A DNA stretch of 64,000 nucleotides from the NCBI GenBank assembly GCA_963823455.1, contig CAWGLO010000002.1, positions 590,706-654,705 on the forward strand. Direction: 5' to 3'. The DNA is from an uncultured beta proteobacterium. Its GTDB lineage: Bacteria; Pseudomonadota; Gammaproteobacteria; Burkholderiales; Rhodocyclaceae. This document shows, piece after piece, positions 4,800 to 13,080 of this stretch. Both the position numbers and the translations under genes were made by a program. The notes beneath the pieces are model-generated. The model made no database searches. It was not told the DNA's origin and saw only the letters and a program-made list of their open reading frames with translations. Positions within the stretch are counted from its first letter, which is position 1. Each line of letters begins with the position of its first letter.

Positions 4800-5501
4800 T
4801 CAGTAGCCGCTGCAGTACTGAAAGTGCATCGGATCCTTGTTGGCGCCAGACCAGCGTCCGCCCCAGGTGAAACCGTAGCCTTCGAACAGCGCCACCAGCG
4901 CCGGGTCCATGTCACCGCGCGTGCCCATCGCGTTGGTGCGCGCGTTCAGGTCGATCGCGATGCCCCAGCTGTGCGTCGAGGGTTTGGACTGGCCGCGCTT
5001 CATGCGCCAGTTGTAGCCGCCCCCATAGGTCTTGACCGATTTCTGCAGGCCCTTGGCCACGATGTCTGCGAACACGTTCTGGAGCAAAGGCGCGATCAGC
5101 TTGTGGCAGCGGATGCTCGAAGCGCTGTGCTGCGGGGCCCAGTCGAGCGGCATCGCAAACGGCATCTTCGCCGACACCATGAACTGGCTCTCCCATTTTG
5201 GGTCGGGCCGGTCGCCATCGCCGACATAATTCCAGATGTTGCCGAAGGTCTGGACGATCGCCTGAAGCCTGTTCGGCGGCGCCGGCCAGGCGGGGACTTC
5301 GCGTACCGCGCGGGCGGCGACGCGCGGCGGATTCAGCTCGCGTACCGACGGGATGTGGATGGCCTGGCCGACGCCAATGTCCTTGGCGTCGAGCAGGCCG
5401 TTGTAGCCGGCAAGCGCGCTGGCAAGCTTGCGGTCACCGAGCAGCCGTTCAGCCACCTTGGCGAGCGTGTCACCTTTTTTCAGGATGTAGGGCTTGGCCA
5501 T
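4800..5501 (-). CDS. LysM domain + M15-family (VanY/M15_4-like) peptidoglycan peptidase, no signal peptide
   Basis: N-terminal LysM (YILKKGDTLAKVAERLLGD...GQAIHIP). C-terminal zinc ligands HSWGIAID and DPMHFQ. GAGGAG lies 8 nt upstream of the ATG at 5501; the track ORF extends to a GTG at 5540. Confidence 0.8.
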   Translation of the reverse strand: MAKPYILKKGDTLAKVAERLLGDRKLASALAGYNGLLDAKDIGVGQAIHIPSVRELNPPRVAARAVREVPAWPAPPNRLQAIVQTFGNIWNYVGDGDRPDPKWESQFMVSAKMPFAMPLDWAPQHSASSIRCHKLIAPLLQNVFADIVAKGLQKSVKTYGGGYNWRMKRGQSKPSTHSWGIAIDLNARTNAMGTRGDMDPALVALFEGYGFTWGGRWSGANKDPMHFQYCSGY

Positions 5502-5536
5502 TGGCAGTATCTCCTCAAGATGCGGTCCAAGTACGG

Positions 5537-5815
5537 TCACTTCTTGCTGCGGCGGGCCTCGCGCCGGGCTGGCGCAGCTACGGGCTCAGCGCCGTGAGGC
5601 GGCGCAGGCCGGTCCTCGCGTGGGCGAACACCGGGGCGGATACGCAGACAAAGTTCGATCAGGCGACTCGCATTGCGGTAGAGCGCCGCGTCGGACTCGG
5701 CCACCGCCAGGGCATCGCAGAAGCGCGACAGCAGTTCCATCTGCGAGACCACCGAGTCAAGCTCAGCGGGCTTGACGGTCACATTGGCGAGTGCCTGGGC
5801 ATAGGCTGCGGCCAC
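5537..5815 (-). CDS. probable C-terminal continuation of the 5763-11522 giant gene, separated by one frame break
   Basis: Its frame reads ...SGQAAFDVVAAAYAQALANV.. straight on from ..LIDGSLGQPG of the big ORF. The two ORFs overlap by 53 nt in different frames. Confidence 0.5.
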   Translation of the reverse strand: MAAAYAQALANVTVKPAELDSVVSQMELLSRFCDALAVAESDAALYRNASRLIELCLRIRPGVRPREDRPAPPHGAEPVAAPARREARRSKK

Positions 5816-11522: not shown

Positions 11523-11686
11523 CGGAGGTCTCCTCGTTCTTGTCGGGCCCGTCGGACAACCGCAGCCCGCGCGCTGCGGGCAAATCTAGAGGCAGGTGTG
11601 GGTGTCAGCCGGCACGTATCGCTTGGCCATTTCAACCCCGCGCTTCGATCCCTTGCGGCAGCGCGACGCGATTGCGCCGGCCGGGC

Positions 11687-12589
11687 TCAAACGCTGAAGG
11701 GGCTCTGGGCCAGGAACCGGCTCACCGGGCCGAGCGTGAATAGGTTGGGTGACTGGGTCGGCGGCATGCCGGCCAGGATCTGCTTGTGGAACTGCATGTA
11801 GTTGCCGCTGAAGGCCCCGCCCTTCCACACCTTGAGCAGCCGCTCGGTGAATGCGCCGTTGTGGTCGCCGTCCATCGAGGTCTGGTTGTCCTGGCAGCCC
11901 GAGATCAGGATGACCGCCGGACTGAATTTACTCACAATCGCTGTCAGCCGCCCGCTCACCGCGACGTTGGCCAACGCCGCATCGGGATCCACCGGCTTGC
12001 CCGCAGCCCGGGCCACATCGCGCTGCAGCTTGTCGTAGAAATCCTGGTGCTCGCGGTAGGCGCGCATGGCCACCGCGGTTGGCATCCACTTGGGCCGCAG
12101 ATCGGGCAACGCGCTGGGCACCAGCGCCTCGCGCGTGACGGTACCGCTGTGGCAACTGTCGGACAGCACCAGTACGCGGACACCGGCCTTGAAGGCGGAC
12201 AGCTGTGCATACAGTTCGTCATCGATCAGCTGGCCATCGTAGAGGCACCAGGTCTCGTCCTTCTTGTCGGCCTCCTCCCCGGTGACGTCGGGCACCTGGC
12301 CGCCGTGGCCCGAATAGGTCAGGAAGAACAGATCCCCCGCGGCCAGCGTCTTGGACGCATCGCGCATGCCGGCGAGCACCGCGTCGCGCGTGGCTTTTTG
12401 CGTTAGCAGTACGGTGGGCTTCATGCCGCGGCTCTTGGCGATCGCTGCCATGTCGTTGGCGTCGAACTCGCAGGCGGCCAGTGGGCCGGTCCAGCCTGCG
12501 TAGGCCGCGCCGCTGACGGCGTTCAGCCCGATGTGCAGCGAAAGGGCCCGGCCCTTGGAGGTGCCCGCCTTGGCGGTCTTCTTCGGCAT
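11687..12589 (-). CDS. C14 peptidase (orthocaspase/metacaspase-like)
   Basis: [11 protein letters not shown] (His95), [12 protein letters not shown] (Cys146) and a p10-like [18 protein letters not shown] lies 6 nt upstream of the ATG at 12589; the track ORF extends to 12634. Confidence 0.85.
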
Positions 12590-13080
12590 TCTCGCTCTCC
12601 TTCGACTTGGTCGCGCATAGCGCGGACGAACCATAGGCGCGCCGGACCCAGGAAGATCAACGTCCCCCTTATGCTATCAACCGGGAATGTATCGCTGCAT
12701 CATCGAGCGGTCAATCGGACCGGCGCCGCGGAAGTGGTCGCAGCTGACCGGACGATACCGGACCGGTTCCCGAATCATCGCGATACTGCGCTTGATGCAG
12801 TGGTCGTGGTGACGATCCCATATGCCGGGCACGATTATCGGTTTGCAGCACATCGGAATGGCTCGTCCTTTCGGCCGATGCGGGTGATCACCGGGCCGTC
12901 ACGAACTTCGGCTTTCGGGGGCGATGCAGACGCTCAAGTCGTCGCCTGGAACGACACGCGAGCGACCGGAGTTGGCCGCAATCGCCCATCTGGTACGGGC
13001 CGGAGTGGCGAACCCTGGCGGACGGTGCGCGGGGCACACATCGTCCCGACCCTGGCACGGTGGGCCTTGCGCTGCGTGCA

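Follow-up and report, generated by a model that had tools for sequence, protein, structure and literature searches.

A conserved orthocaspase and giant lipase-CHAT gene pair with a facultative murein peptidase: a candidate protease-gated cell-envelope destruction module

We analysed a 64,000-nucleotide (nt) stretch of contig CAWGLO010000002.1 (positions 590,706 to 654,705 of assembly GCA_963823455.1) from an uncultured beta proteobacterium of the Rhodocyclaceae, hereafter the window. Three consecutive minus-strand genes at 4800-12589 encode a C14 orthocaspase, a giant multidomain protein that joins two lipase-type hydrolase domains to a CHAT protease, and a LysM-M15 peptidase. The results showed that the conserved core consists of two genes, those for the caspase and the giant protein. 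The M15 gene is a facultative third member, yet its close homologues are tightly linked to the module and have diverged together with it. We lean towards interpreting the locus as a cytoplasmic, protease-gated module for the destruction of the cell envelope, that is, a suicide module.

Results

Linkage of the three genes across genomes

We scanned genomes at the species level, taking one genome per species. Relatives of the giant protein occurred in at least 319 species, and 80 loci were fetched. They came mostly from Burkholderiales (Rubrivivax, Ideonella/Piscinibacter, Roseateles/Paucibacter, Rhizobacter, Variovorax and Azohydromonas), together with Accumulibacter. Of 72 informative loci, 64 had a C14 caspase gene as the immediate upstream neighbour of the giant gene in the same orientation; the median distance between the two genes was 88 nt. 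The outer flanks of this pair were varied, lineage-dependent housekeeping genes, among them those for purine catabolism, Lon, DegP-like proteins and ABC transporters, and the window lineage carries the pair at another genomic position than its nearest Rubrivivax relatives do. Among the caspase homologues adjoining giant genes, the DSCHS motif was present in 79 of 81 and the [YF]SGHG motif in 74 of 81. The arrangement recurs in many independent genomes, beyond chance, supporting a functional link between the genes. Two sequence types of caspase were found upstream of the giant gene, sharing either 60-79% or 30-39% identity with the window caspase, and both were spread across the giant-protein tree (L001-L080). 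This pattern suggests that the caspase partner has been replaced during the history of the giant family.

The M15 gene was then considered from both sides. Starting from the giant gene, an M15 gene followed directly in 5 of 63 loci, plus L062. Starting from M15, three homologues were looked up (72, 60 and 59% identity), and each directly followed a gene of DUF7379-LCAT-CHAT-TPR-S architecture that itself had a C14 gene upstream. When metagenomes were scanned with M15 as the seed, the giant gene was adjacent in 17 of the 19 informative loci whose M15 protein had at least 55% identity (four convergent). When 78 giant proteins were placed in a neighbour-joining tree, loci with M15 occupied all deep branches as well as scattered crown branches. 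Pairwise identities of the giant and M15 proteins at 15 loci were correlated (Pearson 0.77, Spearman 0.81), and none of 2,000 Mantel permutations gave a value as high. We read this pattern as an old association with repeated loss; the correlation would also be expected from shared vertical descent.

One of the two exceptions among these 19 loci is L107 (4544-5518; also L106), where a 197-residue open reading frame (ORF) with a TPR-S fragment and a 123-residue ORF resembling the giant tail precede the M15 gene, directly after xanthine-dehydrogenase genes. These ORFs look like a decayed or truncated giant gene.

The original prediction, made from the DNA letters of the window, had described the three genes as one compact unit and had proposed a survey of giant homologues for recurring C14 and M15 neighbours. 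The survey confirmed the synteny of the caspase-giant core in related genomes, and the tight linkage seen from the M15 side stood as well, but the M15 gene proved to be facultative. A consistent link of the giant gene to a secretion apparatus, which would have pointed to an exported toxin, was not seen: no secretion genes (vgrG, hcp, PAAR or adaptor) were among the recurrent neighbours at about 160 loci, part of these neighbours having been scanned with Pfam, or in the window flanks. Neither did a small periplasmic immunity gene recur beside the cluster.

Domain architecture of the giant protein and the orthocaspase

The caspase matched Peptidase_C14 with 75.3 bits against a gathering cut-off of 21.4, which places it in the C14 family (Table 1). 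Its catalytic dyad comprises His95 within YSGHGG and Cys146 within DSCHSG. The Shine-Dalgarno (SD) motif AAGGAG lies 7 nt 5' of the ATG, and an alternative ATG at 12634 would give a protein of 315 residues. The nearest solved structure was 3BIJ (E = 1e-83, full length), that of GSU0716 from Geobacter sulfurreducens, a close homologue and a structural-genomics entry without assigned function. In the literature, GSU0716 turned up in metacaspase-modelling papers only.

We collected 1,340 homologues of the giant protein, the full-length ones measuring 1,960-2,090 residues. In alignments of 16-40 homologues (61-84% identity), the protein was strongly conserved, with a mean column identity of 61-66%. 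Pfam matched DUF7379 at residues 220-301, LCAT, PGAP1 and DUF676 at 636-720, the CHAT domain, and weakly TPR-S; no sequence-level match was found in the PDB. AlphaFold2 (AF2) models covered residues 1-1000 at a mean predicted local distance difference test score (pLDDT) of 69.5 and residues 941-1893 at 74.2.

The N-terminal alpha/beta domain had no Pfam match, known trafficking-domain models included. It was matched by only 116 clusters among 1.84 billion representative proteins, and the matches sat N-terminally in the hits, save two low-scoring ones of repeat type. The full-length proteins with such a match measured 1,870-2,190 residues. On these sequence searches, the domain is private to the giant-protein architecture. 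A conserved R121-G122 pair lies inside a loop (residues 116-128) that AF2 predicted to be disordered.

Both hydrolase domains carry a putative Ser-Asp-His triad, assigned by motif order. In hydrolase 1, S291 (HSRGG), D485 and H515 were all invariant among homologues; in hydrolase 2, S674 (HSMGG) was nearly invariant and D862 and H885 were invariant. A Foldseek search with the model of residues 1-1000 placed human LCAT (4X96, 1.2e-4), Pseudomonas aeruginosa lipase 1EX9 and family-I lipases on top. Inside hydrolase 1 we also observed a conserved, strongly hydrophobic segment, FDLFLSGLLTLIGQVPFFF (residues 383-401, window 10322-10378). This was the sole stretch in the three proteins near transmembrane-like hydropathy, and a borderline one; it could be a membrane-docking lid. 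A hydropathy scan, a crude test, found no signal peptide or transmembrane segment in the caspase, the giant protein or the M15 peptidase.

The folded domain before CHAT is probably a pseudo-protease lobe as in separase and Csx29, because the Foldseek matches of the model of residues 941-1893 included Csx29 (8EEX_B), aligned across 578 columns, and 5FBY, the protease domain of separase. The CHAT domain itself scored 124.5 bits against a cut-off of 24, a clear family member, and its dyad, H1422 (SAHG) and C1466 (NCCHLG), was invariant. The C-terminal region was all-helical in the model, with TPR proteins as top Foldseek matches, and TPR-S is annotated in many giant homologues. This TPR/TPR-S tail is presumed to be the sensor or regulatory part.

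A frameshift in the assembled giant gene

As assembled, the giant frame stops at 5763 after about 25 wrong-frame codons. At ~5843-5848 the window reads CAGCC-GG-GAG, compared with CAGCCCGGCGAG in L005, a locus 94-98% identical. The protein P0359 (1,998 residues, 99% identical), from an independent assembly, reads through, and the product of the out-of-frame segment downstream was 100% identical to its residues 1898-1998. In a tblastn search, this tail lay directly after the giant match, or overlapped it by a few codons, in 70 of 80 loci. It is in frame in L004, which has a single ORF of 1,993 residues, and L005 also reads through at that point. Because L005 and P0359 read through and the P0359 tail matches the out-of-frame segment, an assembly error is the likeliest explanation, and the frameshift is probably one; it could also be a real lesion or truncation in this strain. 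Programmed frameshifting at this site was considered and rejected, since close relatives with the two extra nt read straight through. As separate observations, the L005 giant gene (10001-16001) is broken by other small indels, elsewhere than in the window, and other window ORFs may be affected by similar indel errors.

The original prediction had given the giant protein ~1,990 residues (5537-11522) and had placed the M15 start within 40 nt of its end. Both statements are valid only after the frame is repaired, when 35 nt separate the two same-strand genes; in the assembled frame, the protein ends at 5763 with 1,919 residues and the short gap is not found. The other gene-level claims were borne out: the 300-residue orthocaspase with its dyad, the succession of two lipase-type hydrolases, CHAT and a helical tail with S291, S674 and C1466 correctly placed, the LysM and M15 domains of the third protein, the SD motifs (AAGGAG for the caspase, GAGGAG for the giant and M15 genes) and the lack of a recognisable signal peptide in any of the three.

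The LysM-M15 peptidase

The M15 gene has its SD motif before the ATG, and its LysM domain spans residues 5-51. The Zn ligands H177, D184 and H226 were invariant in 18 homologues, all of which start directly with the LysM domain and are leaderless. The protein was weakly similar to the phage endolysins Ply500 (2VO9) and LysB4; identity to phage lysins was 31-37% over 52-59% of the protein, covering the catalytic half only.

Accessory genes and other wall hydrolases

In one clade lacking M15 (L013, L023, L034 and L079), a leaderless GH19 gene (chitinase class I/lysozyme-like) was found beside the pair. The N-terminus of its product resembles a peptidoglycan-binding domain by eye, and Pfam matched GH19 alone. 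At L079 the GH19 gene was present and a caspase was not detectable.

Among distant LysM-M15 relatives (44-50% identity), the giant CHAT gene was not adjacent, and other proteases or phospholipases were found instead (Table 1). This suggests, at the sequence level, a broader theme in which a protease or lipase is combined with a leaderless wall peptidase, assembled from non-homologous parts. Some M15-bearing modules lay among TIR, patatin, Peptidase_C11, LRR and transposase genes.

A recurrent accessory protein of ~660 residues has a TPR-S core (1.3e-20), an N-terminal FVAMPFG... motif and a C-terminal GGDLLF...DGPGGTAHM motif. A protein of ~200 residues consists of the C-terminal domain alone, and one form or the other was beside the pair in 18 of 80 loci. 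The N- and C-terminal domains had no match in Pfam or NCBIfam, and a PDB profile search (alignment A5) returned the TPR core only. We take the C-terminal motif to resemble those of LOG/SLOG-type nucleotide-binding proteins.

Further genes were observed at single loci or in single lineages. L085 carries a 763-residue TIR+TPR gene between the caspase and giant genes, and L083 a 356-residue gene in the same place. The 219-residue gene after M15 in L083 was examined and found to be unrelated to the 'c20' domain; it has a weak DUF1353 match. In L099 and L101 (686-1699, minus strand), a 337-residue protein without a Pfam match is encoded between the convergent M15 gene and the giant gene. Its ...EKYNGFGYR... 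motif recalls lysozyme-like muramidases. Just upstream of the pair, in many loci of Sphaerotilaceae type (16 of the 80 loci, e.g. L003, L006, L045, L048, L067 and L068), there is an RlpA-like gene with DPBB and SPOR domains and a lipoprotein-type leader. RlpA is also a murein-cleaving enzyme. We considered it as a functional partner and judged it more likely to reflect the inherited synteny of a housekeeping gene with its own lipoprotein signal.

Table 1. Features of the cluster in the window and of accessory or replacement genes at related loci
Feature	Position	Strand	Basis
C14 orthocaspase, 300 aa	11687-12589	-	Pfam PF00656 (Peptidase_C14), E = 7.5e-21
Multidomain giant gene product, 1,919 aa in the assembled frame	5763-11522	-	ORF, ATG at 11522 after GAGGAG
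N-terminal alpha/beta domain, aa 1-215	10878-11522	-	AF2 model
Alpha/beta-hydrolase 1 (DUF7379), aa ~216-545	9888-10877	-	Pfam PF24096, E = 2.2e-27
Alpha/beta-hydrolase 2, LCAT/PGAP1-like lipase, aa ~565-915	8778-9830	-	Pfam LCAT, PGAP1, DUF676
Folded alpha/beta domain before CHAT, aa ~958-1182	7977-8651	-	AF2, pLDDT 70-95
CHAT caspase-fold protease, aa 1262-1555	6858-7739	-	Pfam PF12770, E = 7.6e-36
Helical TPR/TPR-S-like C-terminal region, aa ~1575-1893	5844-6800	-	Weak Pfam TPR-S and TPR_2 matches
Frameshift site, 2 nt missing relative to close relatives	5843-5848	-	Alignment with L005
Out-of-frame segment for the conserved C-terminal 101 residues of the giant protein (stop 5537-5539)	5537-5842	-	Identity to P0359; tblastn
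Leaderless LysM + M15 (LAS-fold) peptidase, 233 aa	4800-5501	-	Pfam PF13539 (Peptidase_M15_4), E = 2.9e-15; LysM, E = 2.2e-3
Sigma-70-like promoter match, TTGACC-17-TACATT	12686-12714	-	5' of the caspase gene; sole such match in the region
GH19 gene	L013:1168-1962; L023:13418-14209; L034:7349-8203; L079:8783-9637		Pfam GH19
Neighbour of distant M15: papain C1	L115; L118:9039-9833; L119
Neighbour of distant M15: C14 caspase	L145:7319-8134
Neighbour of distant M15: patatin phospholipase, 1,338 aa	L136:5804-9820; L147
Neighbour of distant M15: KAP NTPase	L120/L121
Accessory protein, ~660 aa, immediately downstream of the giant gene	L003, L004, L030, L031, L037, L041, L044, L063, L075
Standalone form, ~200 aa, beside the pair	L007, L015, L019, L036, L051, L053, L055; L024/L025 (~3.5 kb upstream of the caspase gene)

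Expression signals and flanking genes

The gene spacing of the cluster is operon-like. The promoter match 5' of the caspase gene is a consensus match alone, one being found where 0.6 were expected, and no terminator-like site was found on the minus (coding) strand inside the cluster. The guanine-plus-cytosine (GC) content of the region is ~65-70%. At third codon positions (GC3) it was 0.83-0.85 in all three cluster genes, a real-gene signature, with 0.85 for the giant gene, matching the neighbouring genes. A plus-strand, ATG-initiated ORF of 752 residues (3339-5597), antisense to guaC and the M15 gene, was rejected as a gene; because it fails the GC3 test, we regard it as a shadow ORF typical of high-GC DNA.

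A scan of window 1-19,318 identified msrAB, a radical SAM gene, guaC, SnoaL, PilZ and phosphorylase genes in the flanks. No mobility genes and no phage genes were found in these flanks, nor any direct or inverted repeats flanking the cluster that would suggest a mobile element. Across the whole window, one tRNA-Met was the only Rfam family found. The housekeeping flanks, lack of mobility genes and native composition noted in the original prediction were thus all seen again, and its failure to match the locus to a named defence or cell-death system was repeated with profile searches. PADLOC-DB v2 gave only a weak, partial 33.8-bit caspase match to the generic 'caspase' model PDLC02987 and nothing for the giant and M15 proteins. 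NCBIfam gave only caspase_w_EACC1 (NF047832) at 27.7 bits, below the curated cut-off of 140 for that family.

The sequence that adjoins the module on its upstream side (13000-16500) has a lower GC content (0.61-0.62 versus 0.64-0.70 around it) and a weaker GC3 signal. It contains a SnoaL-like gene (13081-13527, minus), a PilZ gene (15827-16423, plus) and two ORFs without a Pfam match (14090-14518, minus; 14543-15253, plus).

Discussion

A possible route from protease activation to lysis

From the observed composition, conservation and linkage we infer a possible mechanism, every step of which is conditional. The TPR/TPR-S tail would keep the giant protein inactive until it bound a trigger, for example a phage or damage signal. 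CHAT and the orthocaspase would then act as a two-step proteolytic cascade, comparable to SAVED-CHAT activating PCaspase, although the order could equally be reversed. The cascade might cut exposed Arg-containing linkers and so release or activate the lipase domains, comparable to caspase-activated alpha/beta-hydrolase zymogens; candidate sites are R121-G122 in the predicted disordered loop and an Arg-rich linker at ~957-964. Lipolysis would breach the inner membrane. Where present, the trapped LysM-M15 peptidase, or a GH19 lysozyme, could then reach the murein and cause lysis, with abortive infection or programmed death as the outcome.

A more specific version is conceivable, and we put it forward only tentatively. 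The locus might be a host-encoded apoptosis-to-lysis pathway in which a TPR sensor controls a CHAT-to-orthocaspase cascade, the fused lipases serve as an enzymatic holin substitute, and a co-evolving endolysin-like peptidase is freed. The wall-hydrolase slot would be modular (M15 or GH19), and the same logic would have been assembled independently elsewhere with papain or patatin partners. As part of the same tentative proposal, such a pathway might be a protease-gated lysis cassette of cellular, not phage, origin.

Several observations weigh against envelope destruction as a suicide response. The window copy of the giant gene is frameshifted as assembled, and lipids as substrates of the hydrolase domains are inferred from fold and family names. 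No defence-system assignment for the cluster came from PADLOC or NCBIfam. Divergence of the caspase and giant proteins was only weakly correlated (r = 0.43); given this and the two caspase types, their partnership is therefore not strictly co-evolving. About 90% of the genomes with the pair have no adjacent wall hydrolase, and wall attack is therefore not essential to the core function. Sampling accounts in part for the M15 association of the deep branches, whose loci had been found by way of M15. Finally, the pair has housekeeping genes as its neighbours in cultured genomes, and its flanks are the same over ~12 Roseateles/Paucibacter species; such constant flanks suggest long vertical retention, unlike the usual turnover of defence islands.

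Alternative explanations

These constant, housekeeping flanks fit physiological regulated autolysis or stress proteolysis at least as well as they fit defence-island behaviour. The same parts would then answer an endogenous trigger, as a vertically inherited device for death or envelope turnover in floc- or sheath-forming Burkholderiales/Rhodocyclales, for example in the release of extracellular DNA or public goods or in the removal of damaged cells. High conservation along the whole giant protein, the lack of a match to any known defence system, the native-like GC3 of all three genes and the taxa concerned (Accumulibacter, Rubrivivax, Ideonella, Roseateles, Variovorax) are also consistent with autolysis. 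However, some loci lie beside the TIR, patatin, Peptidase_C11, LRR and transposase genes typical of conflict islands, accessory genes (M15, GH19, TPR-S proteins) vary by lineage, the window lineage and its nearest Rubrivivax relatives do not share a genomic position, and the bacterial caspase/CHAT systems characterised so far are all anti-phage. We consider autolysis unlikely, while giving it more weight than the explanations that follow.

In a variant of the suicide model, M15 would stay in the cytoplasm, attack murein precursors there (D-Ala-D-Ala, UDP-MurNAc-pentapeptide or lipid II) and block wall synthesis whether or not the membrane is damaged. VanX is a cytoplasmic LAS-fold enzyme, and M15 has the LAS/M15 fold with its Zn ligands and is leaderless in every homologue. 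Set against this, the conserved N-terminal LysM suggests that the protein binds polymeric glycan strands, its nearest relatives of solved structure are endolysins acting on mature murein, and M15 is replaced at other loci by a GH19 lysozyme, which needs a polymeric substrate. This variant is quite improbable.

We also considered export: the giant and M15 proteins would be antibacterial toxins that a contact-dependent system, e.g. a type VI secretion system (T6SS), delivers, with the caspase as a maturation protease. A lipase plus a peptidoglycan hydrolase is a classic T6SS effector repertoire, and Tle-like and Tae/Tse-like effectors also lack signal peptides, as do all three proteins here. But neither secretion genes nor a small periplasmic immunity gene recurred at the loci surveyed, so that the locus departs from a T6SS effector-immunity pair of Tle/Tae type in both linkage and immunity gene. 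The N-terminal domain is family-private with no match to known trafficking domains, and an internal active CHAT with a TPR-S tail is the intracellular sensor-protease architecture of Csx29 and separase. Export thus seems very improbable. Least credible of all is that M15 is an unrelated neighbour such as a stray prophage endolysin, with the caspase-giant pair alone as a unit: its rarity after the giant gene and its phage-lysin-like catalytic half would suit that idea, but giant genes lie next door in nearly all informative close-M15 loci, the two proteins diverge in correlation, the gene follows on the same strand after 35 nt with its own SD motif, and it has no phage genes nearby and a GC3 like that of its neighbours.

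Implications of a possible protease-gated suicide module

Bacterial caspase-fold proteases have recently been shown to drive immune cell-death programmes. Pores, nucleases, promiscuous proteolysis and one small hydrolase without an assigned substrate make up the effectors known so far. If the suicide reading is correct, a single polypeptide would hold a sensor, a protease and two lipase effectors, with a separate caspase, offering a compact model of a proteolytic cascade, and an endolysin-type murein peptidase would be in cellular, protease-controlled use. Leaderless wall hydrolases were repeatedly found paired with proteases or lipases, which suggests a wider, undescribed class of enzymatic suicide-lysis systems. 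Carriers include wastewater and environmental Accumulibacter, Rubrivivax, Ideonella/Piscinibacter, Roseateles and Variovorax, in which regulated lysis could affect floc stability and phage dynamics.

Comparison with known systems

A full-text literature search found no description of this architecture, DUF7379 and TPR-S combined with CHAT/caspase gave no papers, and two eLife papers from the Aravind laboratory mention no TPR-S or CHAT systems of this kind. The cluster shares with phage holin-endolysin cassettes (Ply500, LysB4, T5 Lys) a leaderless murein peptidase with a cell-wall-binding module. In those cassettes the endolysin needs a membrane lesion to reach the murein; here the lesion would be lipase-made and protease-gated. 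Unlike phage lysis cassettes, the cluster has no holin, spanin or small transmembrane gene and no phage context. Destruction of the inner membrane is also the terminal step for the patatin CapV of the cyclic-oligonucleotide-based antiphage signalling system (CBASS) and for bacterial gasdermin with its caspase-like or CHAT protease, where a caspase-fold protease controls the membrane damage. Unlike these, the window contains no gasdermin, patatin or cyclic-nucleotide signalling genes, and its hydrolases are of LCAT/PGAP1/DUF7379 type.

In fold, the giant protein resembles Craspase Csx29 and separase, with TPR repeats, a probable pseudo-protease lobe and an active CHAT/caspase-fold domain. In contrast to both, its TPR region is C-terminal and lipase domains are present, and, unlike type III-E Craspase, no Cas7-11/gRAMP or other cas genes were found in the scanned flanks (window 1-19,318).

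Two characterised systems come closest in logic. In the modules of Evans et al. (PMC12642450), cell death follows when a caspase-like protease cuts the zymogen of a lipase-like alpha/beta-hydrolase after Arg (R|G). There, as here, the caspase gene adjoins a lipase-like alpha/beta-hydrolase. However, that hydrolase is small and standalone with two conserved R|G sites, and the protease that cuts it carries fused STAND or WD40 sensors, whereas here two hydrolases are fused with a second protease and a presumed sensor in a chain of ~2,000 residues and the caspase is bare. The conserved R121-G122 in the predicted disordered loop recalls the R|G sites, a likeness that is only suggestive. In the type III-B CRISPR-CBASS hybrid of Steens et al. 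(10.1101/2023.06.23.546230), SAVED-CHAT cleaves and activates PCaspase, which then cuts many proteins, leading to abortive infection. The common feature is a sensor-fused CHAT protease next to a separate caspase-like protease gene. Unlike that system, the tail here is TPR/TPR-S with no SAVED domain, no Cas10 or CD-NTase gene lies in the window flanks or recurs in related loci, and the CHAT protein adds two lipase domains and the private N-terminal domain.

Compared with the named systems considered, the composition appears to be new: one chain joins two lipase-type domains to CHAT and a presumed sensor, alongside a separate orthocaspase and an optional, co-diverging, endolysin-like peptidase. 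As a real and coherent module of wide occurrence, it is well supported. The module is best read as a variant of the caspase/CHAT cascades and protease-activated hydrolase effectors.

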